64,000 nucleotides of DNA, from positions 5,792 through 69,791 of the forward strand of contig QEVC01000002.1 of assembly GCA_003576945.1 (NCBI GenBank). The letters are read 5' to 3'. Origin of the DNA: Candidatus Microgenomates bacterium (lineage in GTDB: Bacteria; Patescibacteriota; Microgenomatia; UBA1400; UBA12108). Below are positions 1,666-60,789 of the stretch, in pieces (positions within the stretch are counted from its first letter, which is position 1; every line of letters begins with the position of its first letter). The notes below the pieces were generated by a model. It was not told the origin of the DNA and made no database searches. It saw only the letters and a list, made by a program, of their open reading frames with translations. Made by a program: the position numbers and the translations under genes.

Positions 1666-2669
1666 AGACTCTCAAACCACCCCAAGTCCCTCGAAACTAC
1701 CATATTCCACTGTGGCCTCATATTATGGTCCGCCCCTGGGTATTCATAATAAGTATAACTTTTATCTTGCTCCTTTAATCTCTCTCCTAGCTCTCGATTC
1801 CACGTAACTGGCACCGCGTCATCCACTGTTCCCTGATGAATTACGAGCGGCATCTCGATCCAATCAAGATATTTATCGATCGAGTATTTAAAAACATCAT
1901 ACTCAGCTTCAAATTTTGCAATCTCGCTCCGTAGCCACTTGCCCTGATCTTCTGCCTCATCTGTATAAAACAGGATGTTATAAGGAAACGGTTTGGACAC
2001 CGGCGCCCAGAGAGTGGCACCTAATACGGATTCACGGCTATACGGATTCACGGATTTACGTTTACCTAGCACCTCTGCCACCGAGAGCATGATCTGTCCC
2101 CCGTTGCTATGTCCCCAGAGATAGACTTTGTTTAAATCTACTTGCGACAAACTCGACAAACTCGCGATTAAGTCCAGGATTTCTACCGGCTTAACCAGTC
2201 TCGCCCCGAGCGCATTTTCATCCTCTTGATCGCTTTCCCCATAACCCGAAAAATCCGGAGCAATAGTAATGTAACCATTCTTAGCATATATAGCCGCGGC
2301 GTTACGGGTCCCTGTGCCAGTCGTATAGCCATCTTTCTCGACATACCCCCTCGCCATCACTATAACCCCTACAGGGTGTAACCCCGTAGGCAGATTTAGC
2401 TGTCCACTAATCCGTCTCCTTTCGCTCTGGTAGTAAAAAACATAGCTACTATACTCGTCTGTCTTTGTAATTTCTCTACCTATCTCAATCTGACTAGCTT
2501 TATCCTCCCGCGCAACTAGTCGCTCAAAACTATACTTCTCGTAAGGTTTCTCCGCCACGGTAGCCTCACCCTGTGGCGAAACCACTCGCTCATTTTGGTT
2601 ACCTAAATAAAACCACGTTCCCACCCCAATCAGAGCTAGCAGGAGGATTAGTCTCACTCCACGTTTCAT
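1662..2669 (-). CDS. secreted alpha/beta-hydrolase (S9/dienelactone-hydrolase-like)
   Basis: N-terminal hydrophobic segment; nucleophile elbow 'GHSNGG'. Contains an ACGGATTC tandem repeat in frame (2024-2066). Confidence 0.55.
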   Translation of the reverse strand: MKRGVRLILLLALIGVGTWFYLGNQNERVVSPQGEATVAEKPYEKYSFERLVAREDKASQIEIGREITKTDEYSSYVFYYQSERRRISGQLNLPTGLHPVGVIVMARGYVEKDGYTTGTGTRNAAAIYAKNGYITIAPDFSGYGESDQEDENALGARLVKPVEILDLIASLSSLSQVDLNKVYLWGHSNGGQIMLSVAEVLGKRKSVNPYSRESVLGATLWAPVSKPFPYNILFYTDEAEDQGKWLRSEIAKFEAEYDVFKYSIDKYLDWIEMPLVIHQGTVDDAVPVTWNRELGERLKEQDKSYTYYEYPGADHNMRPQWNMVVSRDLGWFESL

Positions 2670-3922
2670 TTATCCACCCCCAACCCGAGTACTCGATCCC
2701 ACTCTAGGAGCAGTTCGACTTTGTCGAAGTTTGGGATATTCGACTTTACCATCCCCCAAACAGTCGCGAGCGCTTTTGGCATCGCTAGGTCATTCTCGAT
2801 CGCTGCCCTAAACTCGGCTTGGTATTTTTCTATTTGCTCCATTTTCTCGCTGGACAACGTGGTGCGCTCAGTCTGGTCGCTCTTTAGGTTTTGGTAAGTT
2901 TTGCGGAGTTTGGCAAGCGCTGTGGCCGCTGCGCCGAGGGCCTCCCAGGTAAAGTTAAGCTGCTTGCGGTAGTGGCCAGTTAAGTAAAAGTAGCGCAAAG
3001 CCAAAGGCTCATACCCTCGACTCTCAATCTCGTTCACGGTATATGCGTTCCCGAGTGATTTGCCCATCCTCCCCCCATCAACCAGTAAAAATGCGCCATG
3101 GACCCAGGTCTTAACAAATGGGTGTACCCCCGTTGCCCCCTCAGCTTGCGCGATCTCGTTGGGGTGGTGGGTACTACGGAGGTCCTCCCCTCCCACGTGG
3201 ATATCAAACTGATCCCCTAGGTATTTTGTACTCATGGCCGAACACTCGATATGCCAGCCAGGGAATCCCACTCCCCAGGGTGATCCCCACTCCATATCCC
3301 GCTTCGCTCCACTCTTAGGACTAAATTTCCACAGAGCAAAGTCGCGCGGATCCTTCTTCTCGGGGTTAGGCTCTAGCCGTGCCCCAAACTTGATCTGGTC
3401 GAGCGTCGAGAGCTCACCATACTTTTTCCCCGTTTTTTCGTAGGCTAATACATCAAAATATATCCCATCCCCTATTTTGTATGTCAAATCATTCTTTTCA
3501 AGATCAGAAACCATCGCGATCTGTTCAGGGATATGATCTGTTGCTTTGCATACCACCTCGGGACGCATAATTCCAAGTTTGGTCATATGTACAAAAAATT
3601 CTTGGGCGTACCCCTCACTCACGTCCCACGCACTGCGGCCTTCCTTTTTAGCTGCTTTCTCCAGCCTATCCTCTCCCTGACTACTGTCTCCTTCGTTGTC
3701 GCCCGTCAAATGTCCAACATCAGTCAGATTCATCACGTGAGTCACGTCATATCCGAGATATCGCAAACTCCGGCTCAAAATATCTGATAGTGTGTAAGTC
3801 CGAAAGTTGCCAATGGTAGCTGTCGAGTAGACCGTGGGTCCACAGGTGTACATCCCAACCTTGCCCTGCTCTCTTGGGACTACTTCTTCAACAGTCCTAG
3901 TTAGTGAATTAAATAATTTCAT
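2666..3922 (-). CDS. cysS: cysteinyl-tRNA synthetase
   Basis: 'WHIECSAM' and KMSKS variant 'RMGKSLGN'. The HIGH position reads 'TIGN' (see findings). Confidence 0.9.
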   Translation of the reverse strand: MKLFNSLTRTVEEVVPREQGKVGMYTCGPTVYSTATIGNFRTYTLSDILSRSLRYLGYDVTHVMNLTDVGHLTGDNEGDSSQGEDRLEKAAKKEGRSAWDVSEGYAQEFFVHMTKLGIMRPEVVCKATDHIPEQIAMVSDLEKNDLTYKIGDGIYFDVLAYEKTGKKYGELSTLDQIKFGARLEPNPEKKDPRDFALWKFSPKSGAKRDMEWGSPWGVGFPGWHIECSAMSTKYLGDQFDIHVGGEDLRSTHHPNEIAQAEGATGVHPFVKTWVHGAFLLVDGGRMGKSLGNAYTVNEIESRGYEPLALRYFYLTGHYRKQLNFTWEALGAAATALAKLRKTYQNLKSDQTERTTLSSEKMEQIEKYQAEFRAAIENDLAMPKALATVWGMVKSNIPNFDKVELLLEWDRVLGLGVDK

Positions 3923-3972
3923 AAATTCTCCTCGTTAATTTTACCATCGAATTTATAGGCAAAGTTCACACA

Positions 3973-4470
3973 CTATCCCGCCCCCCAGGCTTTATTTTCC
4001 GCACTCGAACTCTGAGTCGCCGCCTTAAGTCCGATGTCTTCTTGTTGTTTTTTCTGAAACTCAAACTCCTTCTTTTGTTCTTCCTTCTTCTCTTCTATTT
4101 GCTTACGTTGTTCCTCTTTTTGTTCATACTCCATTCTGGCTTTTTGCATCCCACTCTCTATGTTTGTGTCCAAGCCCCACTCGCGCACGAGCTGCTTCCT
4201 GAGCATCTCAATCTCCATTAGATCTTTTTGACCCGACAGGCCCGCATACTTGGCGTAGTCATCTTGGGTTTTAAACCCTGCCTTGGCAAGATCGGTCATC
4301 TGTTGGTTTGCCGGATCATCTCCGGGTGAGTTCGGCTGGGAGGTTTGGCCTTTTTCGTTCTGTACCCCCACCATATCCTTAACCACCTCTACCGGCTCGC
4401 TCGCCACACTCTTCACCACATGCTTAGCGAGTCCCGCCAGATTTTGTCCGACCTGTTTCCACACACTCAT
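3973..4470 (-). CDS. hypothetical coiled-coil protein (KEEQ-rich)
   Basis: 165 aa; low-complexity 'EQKEEQRKQIEEKKEEQKKEFEFQKKQQ'. No recognisable domain. Confidence 0.4.
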   Translation of the reverse strand: MSVWKQVGQNLAGLAKHVVKSVASEPVEVVKDMVGVQNEKGQTSQPNSPGDDPANQQMTDLAKAGFKTQDDYAKYAGLSGQKDLMEIEMLRKQLVREWGLDTNIESGMQKARMEYEQKEEQRKQIEEKKEEQKKEFEFQKKQQEDIGLKAATQSSSAENKAWGAG

Positions 4471-4505
4471 AGATCAACTATAAACTACACGCGAGTCAAA
4501 TTCAC

Positions 4506-4718
4506 TTATCCTAGGTACTGCCGCGCTACCATCAACAACACCAAAATAACCAAAGAATATAGGAGTGTCTTAGTCAAATCCTTCACCACATAGTGACTAG
4601 ATAAGTATCCAAACTCATTCCTGTCTTTTTCTACCTGTTTTTCTGCCACTTTCAAACTAAAATTTTGCAACCTGTATGCTGTCTTAATCTTTTCCTCACG
4701 TGTCTTGGTTCTACTCAT
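4506..4718 (-). CDS. small hypothetical membrane protein
   Basis: 70 aa; C-terminal hydrophobic helix. Overlaps the upstream gene by 8 nt, suggesting an operon. Confidence 0.3.
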   Translation of the reverse strand: MSRTKTREEKIKTAYRLQNFSLKVAEKQVEKDRNEFGYLSSHYVVKDLTKTLLYSLVILVLLMVARQYLG

Positions 4719-5292
4719 CAGTGCCTTCGTTATACTCTTTGTTACTTCTCATATCTTCTTCTATTAGGCGACGCAGGTATACCGCACGCGGCACTCTTTT
4801 ATTCTTTGATATCCAATCTAAATACCTACCTATCCGTGGTGATATAAAAAAGTTAAATCTTACGTCCTGAGCAGTTGAGATGTACTCTAGAGCACTTTTA
4901 ACAACACTCTGAATATCATTTTCATGATATTCGAGTAGAACAAGCTTATCATCTACTCTTCCTCTCAAAAAGAATGGCTCCCGCCCCACTTTATAAAGAG
5001 CCACCACTGGTTTACCAGAATCTAGAGCTTCAGTTAAAATATGACCAACATTTACAGTTGATGGGTACGACAACTCCACAAAAACTGCGTCTGCATTTCT
5101 AACCTTCAACGTAATTTCTTTGTACCATGACTCTATTTGTTGGTTTTCTACAAGATCACTATCCTTCACTCCCGAAAAGAGATGACCAGTAAAAACATCA
5201 ATCTTCTGTGACTTCAACTCATTAACAATCTGCTCGTAATAGGTACCTAACTCATCCTTCTGTGCTGCTGATGCTATAAATACTATTTTCAT
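4711..5292 (-). CDS. nucleoside 2-deoxyribosyltransferase-like (SLOG/DRTase-fold) domain fused to a C-terminal ribbon-helix-helix-like tail
   Basis: N-terminus 'MKIVFIASAA...AVFVELSYPSTVNVGHILTEALDSGKPVVALY' matches the Rossmann-like DRTase pattern. C-terminus 'VPRAVYLRRLIEEDM' resembles an RHH DNA-binding motif. Confidence 0.45.
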   Translation of the reverse strand: MKIVFIASAAQKDELGTYYEQIVNELKSQKIDVFTGHLFSGVKDSDLVENQQIESWYKEITLKVRNADAVFVELSYPSTVNVGHILTEALDSGKPVVALYKVGREPFFLRGRVDDKLVLLEYHENDIQSVVKSALEYISTAQDVRFNFFISPRIGRYLDWISKNKRVPRAVYLRRLIEEDMRSNKEYNEGTDE

Positions 5293-5307
5293 ATATGTCG
5301 TAGTATA

Positions 5308-6339
5308 TCATTTTTTTGTAAAGTCAAAGTAATTTGGATATACCTCGATCTTATCAAATCCTCTTAAGGGCATAAAATCCAAATCAATTACACTATGTGG
5401 AGTCATTTGAGCTAGATCATATTGCGAAGGAGATAGTATCCTAGTATGAAACCCATTATCACCTTTGCGCTCTAATACTCCAACACCCACCCAATGTTTA
5501 GCAACCGAAGTATAAGTACTCCCAATACCGATTGAGTCTTCTTTTGGTAAAGTTGAAAGTATTACCCCGCGACCAAACTTGTCGTTAACAAGTATGTCCT
5601 GAGTAACAGCATACTCATAAAGAACTGCTCTTTTAACTAACCTAATTTTTTGATCATCGGTCGTTTCATGCCAAGGCTCAACTCCATTCCATTTAATATT
5701 TAACCAAGCTCTTCTAATATAGTCTGTTTGCTTTGCTTGATTCCACGAATAAAACCTCTCCTCAGCGTAGGTCATAGCTTTTTGTATCTCTTCTTCATAT
5801 TTAGATCTAGTTCTACCGTCTAGTTCAGTCAGTATATTGATTTTAAAATTATCTGGTAAGTAACGACTAAAGATACTTAGAATTTCCGAAAATCCTACTC
5901 TGTAGGTATCTACTTCTTCTTGCGATAAGTTATTGTGAAGTTGTGGGAGTATAGTTAAAAAATAGTAAGACAAATCAACACCTTGTTTGTATGTAGCGAC
6001 AATCGGTGATAAATACGCAGCTAGATAGACTATATTAAAAAATTCTGCCCAGTTTGGCATAGGTGAAGACTCAACGCGCCATAACTTATAGCATCCTTGA
6101 GCAAAAAATACTCTAATCGGTCGGCACTCCTTGATCGCGTTCGATACCTCTTTATCTACCAATGCCCTACACTCTTCCTCTATACGCCACTTACGATATT
6201 TTTTTGAAAATAATTTTGATTTAATATACTCTTCTAGTCCTACTTTTTTTAGTAAATTTATATCATCCTTACTAGGAATGTAGTTACCACTCTTATGCAA
6301 GAGATCTCTTAGGTAATTATTAGTCAATCCATCTCTCAT
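5308..6339 (-). CDS. hypothetical protein, no recognisable domain
   Basis: 343 aa. Co-directional and tightly spaced with 4711-5292. Immediately 3' of a tRNA-like gene. Confidence 0.4.
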   Translation of the reverse strand: MRDGLTNNYLRDLLHKSGNYIPSKDDINLLKKVGLEEYIKSKLFSKKYRKWRIEEECRALVDKEVSNAIKECRPIRVFFAQGCYKLWRVESSPMPNWAEFFNIVYLAAYLSPIVATYKQGVDLSYYFLTILPQLHNNLSQEEVDTYRVGFSEILSIFSRYLPDNFKINILTELDGRTRSKYEEEIQKAMTYAEERFYSWNQAKQTDYIRRAWLNIKWNGVEPWHETTDDQKIRLVKRAVLYEYAVTQDILVNDKFGRGVILSTLPKEDSIGIGSTYTSVAKHWVGVGVLERKGDNGFHTRILSPSQYDLAQMTPHSVIDLDFMPLRGFDKIEVYPNYFDFTKK

Positions 6340-6344
6340 ATTTG

Positions 6345-6418
6345 AGATGCGAGAAGGATTCGAACCTCCGTCTTTTCGTTTTACAACGAAATGCCTGAAC
6401 CAACTCGGCTATCGCATC
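6345..6418 (-). tRNA. atypical tRNA-like gene (GUA anticodon = Tyr-like, short variable arm, 8-nt anticodon loop or 6-bp stem)
   Basis: Reverse complement gives a perfect 7-bp acceptor stem (GATGCGA/TCGCATC) and T-arm GGAGG-TTCGAAT-CCTTC. The anticodon arm is an 18-nt perfect hairpin TTTCGTTGTAAAACGAAA, one nt longer than canonical. No encoded CCA. Confidence 0.6.
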
Positions 6419-6451
6419 GATTTACACATATTATACTCATTAAAGTGAAAA

Positions 6452-7051
6452 TTATGACACTGCCCTTCTAGTAAGCAGCGCCTGGTGTAATGTAACTTCG
6501 TCGGCATATTCTATCTCAACTCCTGTTGGGAGTCCACGCCCAATCCGTGTAATTATCACATCACATCCATCCAATGCTTGTTTTATGTATAGCGCAGTCG
6601 CCTCCCCCTCCAAGCTCGTATTAGTCGAAAGTATTACCTCTTTTACCCCTCCGCTCTTCACCCGTTTAATTAAGGTGTCAATAAAGAGTTCCTCTGGTCC
6701 CACGTTATTTAGCGGGGAGATTGAGCCATGGAGTACATGATATAGCCCTTTGTAACTCCCTGATTTCTCGAGTGCAATCACATCCTGAAAAGACTCAACC
6801 ACACAAACCAGTGAATTATCTCTAGACTGATCGCTACAAACAGTACACTGATCACTATCAGTTAAGTTGTGGCATATCGTACATAACTTTGTTTGCTTTT
6901 TGAGATTAGTGAGACTCATCCCAAACATCTCGAGGTCTCTCTGAGGCATCCGCAGTAGATAAAAAGCGAGCCGTAGCGCACTGCGCCTACCGATCCCAGG
7001 CAGTTTCTCAAAACTGGATGCTACATCCTCTACAATCTTCGGTAATTTCAT
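6452..7051 (-). CDS. recR: recombination protein RecR
   Basis: HhH 'LPGIGRRSALRLAFYLL', C4 zinc finger 'CTICHNLTDSDQCTVCSD', Toprim region. Start trimmed to an internal Met. Confidence 0.9.
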   Translation of the reverse strand: MKLPKIVEDVASSFEKLPGIGRRSALRLAFYLLRMPQRDLEMFGMSLTNLKKQTKLCTICHNLTDSDQCTVCSDQSRDNSLVCVVESFQDVIALEKSGSYKGLYHVLHGSISPLNNVGPEELFIDTLIKRVKSGGVKEVILSTNTSLEGEATALYIKQALDGCDVIITRIGRGLPTGVEIEYADEVTLHQALLTRRAVS

Positions 7052-60094: not shown

Positions 60095-60739
60095 ATGCCC
60101 TACCCTAAGTTCTGGACAGAGTCAGAACTCGAAAAACTAAAGTCTCTTTATAACTCTGGTCTTAGTATGCGAGAGGTAGGTGAATACTATGGTAAATCAG
60201 TACGAGCCATCGTTAGTGTGATGAAACGTCACCATATAATCAGAAGACCAGCCTCAATCACACGCACTTACCAGTTTTCAAAATCACCATTATCCTTTCA
60301 AGTTAAACAAAATCTAAATCATCACGAAGAACTACTCAAGATCGCGGGCCTAATGCTCTATTGGGGTGAAGGAGGCAAGAAAAATTCTAAAGGAGTAGAT
60401 TTTGTCAACTCTGATCCCGATATGATTATAGTTTTTTTACGGTTCCTCCGTATTGTCTATCAAATAGATGAGGCTAGACTCCGAGTCTACCTCTACACAT
60501 ACCAGTCACTCCCAACACCACGTCTGGTTGATTATTGGTCTAAGTTAACTAAGATCCCTAACACACAATTTACCAAGCCATATATCAGAGAGAAAAGCAG
60601 TCAAAAACATGATAAAATGTCACATGGCCTCATTCATATCAGATACTCTGACAAACGTTTGTTTGAATTAATAATGAGTGAGATCAGCTCTTTTATATCA
60701 AGCTGGGATGGTGGAGCGGTCAAACACACGACTCTGTAA
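60095..60739 (+). CDS. hypothetical HTH-containing protein with a degenerate LAGLIDADG-like segment; 3' end overlaps tRNA-Tyr
   Basis: N-terminal HTH 'LSMREVGEYYGKSVRAIVSVMKRH'; 'IAGLMLYWGEGGK'. The last ~12 codons are the tRNA-Tyr 5' half, so the true stop may be earlier. Confidence 0.3.
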   Translation: MPYPKFWTESELEKLKSLYNSGLSMREVGEYYGKSVRAIVSVMKRHHIIRRPASITRTYQFSKSPLSFQVKQNLNHHEELLKIAGLMLYWGEGGKKNSKGVDFVNSDPDMIIVFLRFLRIVYQIDEARLRVYLYTYQSLPTPRLVDYWSKLTKIPNTQFTKPYIREKSSQKHDKMSHGLIHIRYSDKRLFELIMSEISSFISSWDGGAVKHTTL

Positions 60740-60789
60740 AAGTCGCGCCTCACGGCTACGCAAGTTCGAATCTTGCTCCCAGCACCAAA
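60702..60789 (+). tRNA. tRNA-Tyr (GTA), class II with long variable arm, CCA encoded
   Basis: GCTGGGA..CGACT-CTGTAAA-AGTCG..long arm CGCCTCACGGCTACG..GCAAG-TTCGAAT-CTTGC-TCCCAGC-A-CCA. Confidence 0.85.

Follow-up and report, generated by a model that had tools for sequence, protein, structure and literature searches.

The anticodon loop is normally the most conserved part of a transfer RNA (tRNA). Departures on record include natural tRNAs whose anticodon loops are odd, pseudo-tRNAs, co-transcripts of tRNA and mRNA and, in one case, a cysteinyl-tRNA synthetase (CysRS) without an anticodon-binding domain (ABD) that goes with a tRNACys lacking the GCA anticodon. Here we analysed a stretch of 64,000 nucleotides from a Candidatus Microgenomates bacterium (contig QEVC01000002.1; the whole stretch is called the window throughout), which carries on its minus strand, at 6345-6418, a 74-nt tRNA-like gene with an abnormal anticodon arm. 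By sequence comparison this gene is the orthologue of a tRNA-Cys in an uncultured bacterium of the Woesebacteria, within the candidate phyla radiation (CPR). We give about an even chance to the reading that it is a non-decoding tRNA-Cys derivative, kept as the transcribed and processed head of a cassette with the downstream open reading frame (ORF) ORF343 and possibly still charged with cysteine.

Among described systems, the selC* tRNACys/CysRS* pair of Desulfobacterales combines a CysRS without ABD with a non-GCA tRNACys (PMC5389517; reviewed in PMC7609411). The window resembles it in having a tRNA of Cys identity (U73) with a non-GCA anticodon and a longer anticodon stem near a CysRS that lacks the ABD. 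However, decoding is proven for selC*, which combines an 8/4 acceptor/T structure and a long variable arm with a UCA anticodon in a loop of normal type, whereas the RNA described here is of the 7/5 type and class I, with an abnormal loop that varies between species. Of the traits that define the pair, we found the CysRS without ABD and did not find the 8/4 structure, the long variable arm or the opal anticodon. CysRS* is, furthermore, a second gene copy with changes in CP1, whereas the short CysRS of the window stands at the orthologous housekeeping locus and lacks only its last ~59 aa.

One extra loop nucleotide also characterizes the laboratory +1 suppressors sufD, SufA6 and SufB2 (PMC7803779, PMC9094753), and ARAGORN reads a four-base anticodon here. 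These suppressors are single mutants of decoding tRNAs that were selected on a specific frameshift site; unlike them, the gene in the window belongs to a clade in which the extra nucleotide is fixed, the loop is unconserved, and the loop ends are complementary and covary. A naturally fixed 8-nt loop with an anticodon switched from that of its ancestor is found in yeast mitochondrial tRNAThr1(UAG) (PMC4267643, PMC4756836), which differs in its conserved loop, dedicated synthetase recognition and codon reassignment; we saw no reassignment here. A retained chromosomal tRNA-shaped gene outside translation, as we propose for the window, has a counterpart in Bacillus cereus tRNAOther, which has a regulatory effect (PMC3399842). 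That gene, unrelated in sequence, borders a genomic island, whereas ours is a tRNA-Cys orthologue joined to a downstream ORF, with comparative evidence of selection. In the Escherichia coli operons metY-nusA-infB and thrU-tyrU-glyT-thrT-tufB, a tRNA with its own promoter heads the operon and tRNA processing enzymes release the mRNA. There the tRNA is a normal decoder, whereas here the decoding end appears to have been given up and the processing-competent body kept. In the literature we found no prior report of a tRNA-Cys with such loops in CPR bacteria, nor of the combination of a CPR tRNA-Cys with a selected body, a loop of altered length that varies between species, strict linkage to an IsnA/PvcA-like gene and a tail-less CysRS.

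Identity of the tRNA-like gene

ARAGORN, which an earlier reading of this DNA (the original prediction) had proposed for checking the gene, called four ordinary tRNA genes in the window (Trp CCA, Thr UGU, an 86-nt class II Tyr GUA and Thr GGU) and a fifth gene at 6344-6418 of the minus strand, which it returned as tRNA-??? with a four-base 'anticodon', gtaa. This fifth gene matches the Rfam tRNA family RF00005 across model positions 1-71 of 71 with 58.0 bits (gathering score 29; E 6.4e-10 for the whole window), and with this score, the acceptor, D and T arms and the conserved tertiary nucleotides it belongs to that family. The opposite strand (6344-6418, plus) gave a match to the Plastid-ycf2 5' untranslated region RNA of Rfam with 24.5 bits, below the gathering score of 65.7; this candidate was rejected, the match being the mirror image of the tRNA.

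The RNA reads GAUGCGA-UA-GCCG-AGUUGGUUC-AGGC-A-UUUCG-UUGUAAAA-CGAAA-AGAC-GGAGG-UUCGAAU-CCUUC-UCGCAUC-U. Its acceptor stem has 7 bp, the D and T loops are canonical (G18G19 and UUCGAAU), U8, A14 and G53-C61 are present, the variable region has 4 nt and the discriminator is U73; the gene encodes no CCA. The textbook acceptor and T arms, the 4-nt variable arm and the GUA after U33 that had been described earlier are all present in the sequence. The anticodon arm departs from that of a canonical elongator tRNA, with its 5-bp stem, 7-nt loop, U33 and three-base anticodon: the 18 nt of UUUCGUUGUAAAACGAAA (6374-6391, minus strand) can form 5 bp with an 8-nt loop, 6 bp with a 6-nt loop, or 7 bp with a GUAA tetraloop. 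The original prediction had described the perfect 18-nt hairpin and the first two folds exactly and had missed the third.

The gene had also been taken as Tyr-like and contrasted with a genuine class II tRNA-Tyr(GUA) elsewhere in the window. The comparator is indeed there (60702-60787, plus strand, by ARAGORN and Rfam), but only the GUA at the anticodon position (6382-6384, minus strand) fits a bacterial tRNA-Tyr; the variable region has 4 nt and the discriminator is U73, not A73. Pairwise identity is 60% to this tRNA-Tyr and 59-65% to the four other tRNAs of the window, versus 75-80% to tRNA-Cys(GCA) genes that occupy the same slot in relatives. Pairwise identities were used for this comparison, and a family covariance model was dropped, as MAFFT placed inconsistent gaps in the members with a 5-bp stem. 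We found the order recR-tRNA-ORF343 at 11 distinct loci, nine of which have a tRNA-Cys with GCA, U73 and the acceptor stem GAUGCGR; relatives with the GCA anticodon, U73 and an ORF343 homologue in this slot are L004, L006, L034-L038, L044 and L045. The slot, the identities and the shared acceptor stem (GAUGCGR/YCGCAUC), AGAC variable region and T arm together establish the gene as a tRNA-Cys orthologue that is not Tyr-like. In its closest relative, L031, an otherwise near-identical tRNA carries UUGCAAAA, that is, GCA in the same 8-nt loop, so that the GUA of the window corresponds to a change of C35 to U.

Cys identity depends chiefly on U73 and GCA, and in minihelices U73 suffices to confer it (PMC9976931). 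U73 is present in the window and in 12 of 12 other orthologues read; the anticodon is GUA in the window versus GCA in L031, L033 and the nine relatives with 7-nt loops. The homologues of RecR, CysRS and ORF343 come from metagenome-assembled genomes (MAGs) of Candidatus Microgenomates/Woesebacteria. Ten third-party annotation (TPA) MAG records among the loci compared (L001, L004-L006, L009, L010, L014, L015, L017 and L018) are titled 'uncultured Pseudomonadales bacterium'; these titles are probably a taxonomic mislabel, the loci being of Woesebacteria type (RecR 70-90% identical, same gene order).

The 74-nt sequence recurs unchanged in the NCBI MAG GCA_025993845.1 and in the Logan assemblies SRR22392803 and ERR10655378, while the contig of SRR24682841 stops inside the tRNA gene and covers its first 52 nt, loop included. 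These four loci are 99.95-100% identical to the window across 1.5-5.6 kb. Since four further assemblies, made from different samples, show the identical loop, an assembly error is excluded as the source of the extra A. The original prediction had held that one A fewer in this run would reduce the gene to a normal tRNA; the four assemblies keep the A, and its removal would still leave GUA. The extra A is thus conserved among these assemblies, and the loop sequence varies among the orthologues.

Loop change and conservation of the tRNA body

The three nearest relatives by ORF343 protein identity (80%, 70% and 69%) have the same tRNA body with other abnormal loops. L031 has the anticodon arm UUUCG-UUGCAAAA-CGAAA, in which ARAGORN reads 'gcaa'; L033 has UUUUG-CCGCAAAG-CAAAA, read with a two-base anticodon, i.e. 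as 6 bp and 6 nt; and L032 has UUUCG-UUAUAUAAA-CGAAA, called as tRNA-Ile UAU. L033 belongs to the assembly GCA_964594015.1, and L031 and L032 to Logan runs. The loops of the four odd-loop orthologues, the window included, are GCAA, GUAA, UAUAUAA (with A33) and CGCAAA. Between the end of the D stem and the start of the T stem, the canonical loci L006, L034-L036, L044 and L045 have 22 nt (5 bp and 7 nt) and L004, L037 and L038 have 24 nt (6 bp and 7 nt); the window, L031 and L033 have 23 nt and L032 has 24 nt. The window loop is best described as an ancestral xxGCAAAx, one nucleotide longer than normal (the standard being UUGCAAA), with C35 changed to U, and the GCA anticodon has, from the sequences compared, been lost twice in the odd-loop subclade, to GUA in the window species and to UAUAUAA in L032. 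A pattern scan of metagenomes of the Joint Genome Institute (JGI) returned only three loci, all with a normal tRNA-Cys, and no further odd-loop members.

The minimum-energy structure from RNAfold for the window tRNA is a cloverleaf whose anticodon arm has 7 bp and a GUAA loop, 3.4 kcal/mol better than the open 8-nt loop. The L031 arm folds into 7 bp with GCAA, and that of L037 into a GCAA tetraloop closed by C-C/G-G with a bulged U. Both GUAA and GCAA belong to the GNRA tetraloops, and C35U hits the unconstrained N. A normal 7-nt loop in which 32:38 and 33:37 paired would keep only 3 nt open, so that a tetraloop depends on the extra nucleotide. These thermodynamics are suggestive of a closed arm of 7 bp with a GNRA tetraloop. 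The two end nucleotides of the '8-nt loop' make up the sixth pair, which covaries across orthologues (U-A, C-G, U.G) and so favours the closed reading of the arm.

Changes in the arm are also seen outside the odd-loop subclade. The tRNA-Cys genes of L037 (769-843), L038 (128-202) and L004 (3631-3703) have a 6-bp anticodon stem although ARAGORN calls them normal, and in L037 and L038 C33 replaces U33 and the loop CCGCAAG(G) can close as C-C/G-G around GCAA. From these 6-bp stems and closable loops, remodelling of the arm may predate the subclade of the window. In the tRNA-Cys of L045 (4893-4963), the base of the acceptor stem carries an A7/C66 mismatch, where relatives have G-C, G.U or A-U.

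The remainder of the molecule was compared with the four-fold degenerate sites of ORF343, which are 58% identical between the window and L031 and 25-35% identical, i.e. saturated, for the other odd-loop pairs. Over the 66-nt body outside the loop, the four orthologues show 2-6 differences per pair (91-97% identical), and variable columns make up 7 of 66 in the body versus 7 of 9 in the loop (Fisher p = 5e-5). Pairing is standard in 204 of 204 pair cells of the stems in the ten-sequence alignment A3; seven pairs change on both sides, including all six of the extended anticodon stem. Two of them change within the odd-loop clade: pair 7:66 is G-C in normal members, G.U in L031 and A-U in the window, L032 and L033, and pair 30:40 has C-G in the window versus U-A in L033. 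Although their four-fold sites are saturated (26% identical), L031 and L033 show only 4 differences over the 66 body positions, and their stems carry compensatory changes. The promoter motif GTATAAT(A/G)TGTGTA is kept in 4 of 4 odd-loop orthologues against saturated sites. Conservation of body, stems and -10 box on this scale excludes a long-dead pseudogene, and comparison of the sequences places the tRNA body, promoter and stems under purifying selection. A decayed tRNA, one of the earlier suggestions, is therefore right for the lost anticodon and wrong for the body, promoter and stems.

The short CysRS and the ORF343 cassette

In the E. coli complex, the C-terminal domain of CysRS contacts the GCA anticodon. 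The window encodes a CysRS of 418 aa (cysS, 2666-3922, minus strand) that lacks this C-terminal ~59-aa CysS_C/anticodon-binding domain: TIGR00435 is matched at positions 1-374 of 466, and in alignment A4 the protein ends ...VLGLGVDK while relatives of 473-480 aa run ~59 residues further. The extension of these long relatives (...RExARxxKxxxxADKIRxxIEKLGYxxxDxG...) corresponds to Pfam CysS_C; the terminal domain alone is missing, and the helical bundle is retained. The gene that follows starts in overlap with the cysS stop codon, so nothing has been split off. Among the CysRS matches listed, the 13 closest (84-100% identical) and one at 81% have 417-424 aa, and nearly all others at <=81% have 463-489 aa. 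Because this split in length tracks identity, the truncation marks a clade of Woesebacteria. At loci that allowed both genes to be read, the short CysRS goes with the odd loop in the window and L031 and the long CysRS with a normal GCA loop in L037, L044 and L045, a correlation in a small sample of 2 + 3 loci that covers two (the window and L031) of the four odd-loop members. In L041, L042, L043 and the L001 contig a short CysRS is present, and tRNA and ORF343 are both absent at the locus.

Read along the minus strand, the genes follow one another as dnaX (8618-7383), ybaB, recR, tRNA, ORF343, ORF193, ORF70, ORF165, cysS and a hydrolase gene. The upstream neighbour recR (7081-6452) is the last of the dnaX-ybaB-recR run; its 209-aa product has the Pfam RecR domains (P0001, 100% identical). 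A TATAAT -10 box lies 11 nt upstream of the tRNA 5' end (6430-6435, minus strand). A simple promoter scan did not list this TATAAT, for want of a -35 match, and the box is recognized by its conservation alone. A terminator-like hairpin, found as a consensus match only (6456-6482, minus strand), overlaps the 3' end of recR directly before this box, a position that fits a tRNA-ORF343 unit with its own transcription start. ORF343 (5308-6339, minus strand) begins with an ATG 5 nt after the tRNA 3' end; the trailer from U73 reads CAAAU-AUG, which leaves no room for a promoter in between, and the distance is 5-7 nt in all but one measured locus.

ORF343 is a divergent protein with an IsnA/PvcA/Dit1-like fold. 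By sequence it had no match in Pfam, NCBIfam or PHROGs, and a profile search against PDB sequences gave noise only. Its AlphaFold model (pLDDT 93.5) has as top Foldseek matches the isonitrile synthases PIsnA (9dhm/9dh4) and PvcA (3e59), with E 5e-9 and TM 0.6-0.7; lower in the list stand TrpRS/TyrRS catalytic domains and cyclodipeptide synthases (E 1e-3 to 1e-2, TM ~0.3). Two close homologues reach E 3.6e-4 against PF05141 (DIT1_PvcA), which the window protein itself does not match, and in the wider family one member scores 29.5 bits (cut-off 26.4) and others 19-24 bits. This unannotated family comprises about 446 clusters at 50% identity, one member of which (P0391, 593 aa) is fused to a short-chain dehydrogenase. 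A distant homologue in Patescibacteria (38% identical; L039, 5960-6003, and L040) has no tRNA upstream; a TATAAT 7 nt before its ATG suggests a leaderless mRNA, which parallels the 5-nt leader after the tRNA in the window.

Co-occurrence of tRNA and ORF343 is strict: 11 loci have both genes, 19 have neither, and no locus has one of them alone. The backbone recR-[slot]-ORF193-ORF70-ORF165-cysS is kept in all Woesebacteria relatives compared, and the slot between recR and ORF193 (4711-6450 in the window; loci L001-L045) is variable, being empty or holding an AAA_33 P-loop kinase, a methyltransferase, or the tRNA with ORF343. ORF193 (4711-5292, minus strand) is nucleoside 2-deoxyribosyltransferase-like by weak to moderate PF05014 matches of its orthologues; its single-sequence structure model (pLDDT 56.5) was not used. 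Identity of ORF193 is 67-94% in loci with ORF343 and 36-59% in loci without it. These two sequence types track ORF343 and not the backbone, so that tRNA, ORF343 and ORF193 act as one cassette, and the pattern suggests exchange of the cassette by recombination at the slot. ORF70 (4506-4718) and ORF165 (3973-4470), both on the minus strand, are backbone genes conserved among relatives. The minus strand holds 43 of the 59 ORFs, GC skew is negative in every 2-kb interval of 1-64000 (-0.07 to -0.36), and the window as a whole seems to fall within one replichore that has a strong gene-strand bias.

A proposed non-decoding derivative and its alternatives

The course of events that we propose would start from a tRNA-Cys(GCA) with its own promoter directly before ORF343 and co-transcribed with it. 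In one Woesebacteria subclade the arm would have been remodelled, with one more loop nucleotide giving two extra U-A pairs and a GNRA tetraloop, after which the anticodon would be free to change, as from GCA to GUA in the window species. Promoter, acceptor stem, U73, D/T elbow and anticodon stem are still maintained by selection. Cleavage by RNase P at the tRNA 5' end and by RNase Z after U73 would yield an ORF343 mRNA with a 5-nt leader, and the RNA may still be cysteinylated, U73 being intact and the CysRS lacking its anticodon-reading tail. The window loop holds no C, so no loop base pairs with the G of UGY and Cys codons cannot be read; the unconserved loop, the closable arm and the competition from a normal tRNA-Tyr likewise suggest that the RNA has left decoding. 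The window codons (18,525) include 90 UGU and 46 UGC, and all three stop codons are used. The tRNA is also dispensable, since the short-CysRS relatives L041-L043 and L001 have neither tRNA nor ORF343 at the locus. Any reading requires another tRNA-Cys(GCA) elsewhere in the genome, which we presume to exist.

Several points weigh against this reading. The second tRNA-Cys has not come to light in the window, which has five tRNA-like matches in total even at E <= 0.1, or in any relative's locus examined. RNAfold pairs a canonical arm too far as well (7 bp and a 3-nt loop for L034), and the tetraloop fold is only suggestive because nearest-neighbour folding over-pairs normal anticodon loops in this way; moreover, the AUAUA loop of L032 is not GNRA. 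L031 and L033 are mutually saturated yet both retain G-C-A-A-A in the odd loop, so the central loop is not simply neutral in these two lineages and their loops may still decode, or be read by CysRS, there. With two body differences from L031, the C35U change in the window lineage could be very recent and the gene there freshly dead. Finally, tRNA and ORF343 lie side by side, and their joint loss may mean no more than that single deletions removed both.

The last but one of these points leads to a recently dead pseudogene, a redundant recR-linked copy of tRNA-Cys whose anticodon has just been lost and which has had no time to decay. The window tRNA has only three differences from L031, which retains GCA, the gene has been deleted outright in several short-CysRS relatives, and GCA was lost independently in two of four lineages. 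We nevertheless regard this as distinctly unlikely, as the odd-loop state is old and maintained (4 of 66 body differences between L031 and L033, compensatory changes, saturated four-fold sites), L032 shows at least four loop changes versus only 2-6 body changes, and the -10 box is conserved; by an estimate from four-fold sites, a neutral body would have gathered ~20 substitutions since the split from L031, whereas at most 2 are seen. An active non-canonical decoder, whose 8-nt loop would read UUAC, shift by +1 at UAC/UAU or insert Cys at Tyr codons, is more improbable still. An 8-nt loop is possible by the ARAGORN reading, and with U33-G-U-A-A it has the anatomy of laboratory +1 suppressors (PMC7803779, PMC9094753); a natural 8-nt loop can decode in yeast mitochondrial tRNAThr1 (PMC4267643), and the short CysRS could charge the RNA regardless of its anticodon. 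But the covariation of the loop ends supports their pairing and thus the closed form, there is no conserved four-base anticodon, and the four orthologue loops are unlike one another in length and sequence; this cannot be reconciled with a conserved target for recoding and does not fit the frameshift suppression that had been suggested. In addition, the conserved Cys and Tyr columns of RecR and CysRS are normally encoded, a standard tRNA-Tyr exists and the gene is dispensable in relatives; the 59 ORFs of the window (87% coding density) end in ordinary stops. An integration-site relic, or a homopolymer error in an ordinary 7-nt loop, is hardly credible. The slot is variable among relatives and GC content falls to 39.8% at 4001-6000 versus about 45% for the window, but no integrase was found near the tRNA in Pfam, PHROGs or PADLOC, the four ORFs of the supposed islet gave only weak noise among phage and defence families (PHROGs, PADLOC), and no direct repeat of the tRNA 3' end was found in 3700-6600. 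The original prediction of an integration site for this islet was rejected on these grounds and because the tRNA is missing wherever ORF343 is missing (19 loci without either, none with the tRNA alone). A phage or mobile origin was likewise rejected, two scans of viral contigs, with the ORF343 profile and with the tRNA pattern, having returned no matches. As for a sequencing artefact, three other species share the arm length class, the loop recurs in the four assemblies, and GUA would persist without the A.

A further possibility, which we consider unlikely, is a dedicated Cys carrier: the anticodon-blind short CysRS would charge the RNA, the closed arm would keep it off the ribosome, and Cys or a Cys-derived group would pass to ORF343. 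Models for such a role are the non-proteinogenic tRNAs that serve cell-wall synthesis in some bacteria and the cyclodipeptide synthases, which use aminoacyl-tRNAs. It agrees with the conservation of U73 and the whole acceptor/T/D body, with the restriction of odd loops to loci with a short CysRS (window and L031, versus normal GCA loops with the long form in L037, L044 and L045), and with the strict co-occurrence of tRNA and ORF343 in a gene run that includes cysS. Part of this idea is a distant relationship, taken from the structural model, of the ORF343 fold to class-Ic synthetases and cyclodipeptide synthases. These matches rank below IsnA/PvcA and are weak, however, and ORF343 has its best structural and Pfam relatives among the IsnA/PvcA/Dit1 enzymes. 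Such enzymes use free amino acids and are not known to use aminoacyl-tRNA, which counts against a carrier, as do the distant homologue of L039/L040 with no adjacent tRNA, the short CysRS of L041-L043 without tRNA and ORF343, and the size (2 + 3 loci) of the correlation. A CysRS without ABD does work with a non-GCA tRNACys in Desulfobacterales (PMC5389517). The complete form of the carrier, an RNA split off from translation, loaded through U73 by the truncated CysRS, capped by a GNRA arm and serving as substrate or cofactor of ORF343, seems decidedly unlikely from the sequences. If it were true, it would amount to a new tRNA-dependent non-ribosomal pathway, in which loss of a synthetase domain freed the anticodon of a tRNA.

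For annotation, genes of this kind, which are listed as 'tRNA-???' or 'tRNA-Ile', ought to be left out of counts of decoders and not be taken to indicate a code change. Should the favoured non-decoding derivative prove to be charged, it would be the second natural case, after selC*/CysRS*, in which truncation of a synthetase has uncoupled Cys identity from the anticodon, and it would offer a ready-made idea for an orthogonal pair from a CPR genome. Should it serve as a processing handle only, it would represent a bacterial 'tRNA punctuation' that has outlasted the death of the tRNA. The odd tRNA stands beside a CysRS that has lost its anticodon-reading domain, and its clade keeps everything of the tRNA except the anticodon loop, providing a natural comparative view of selection on a tRNA after decoding ends.

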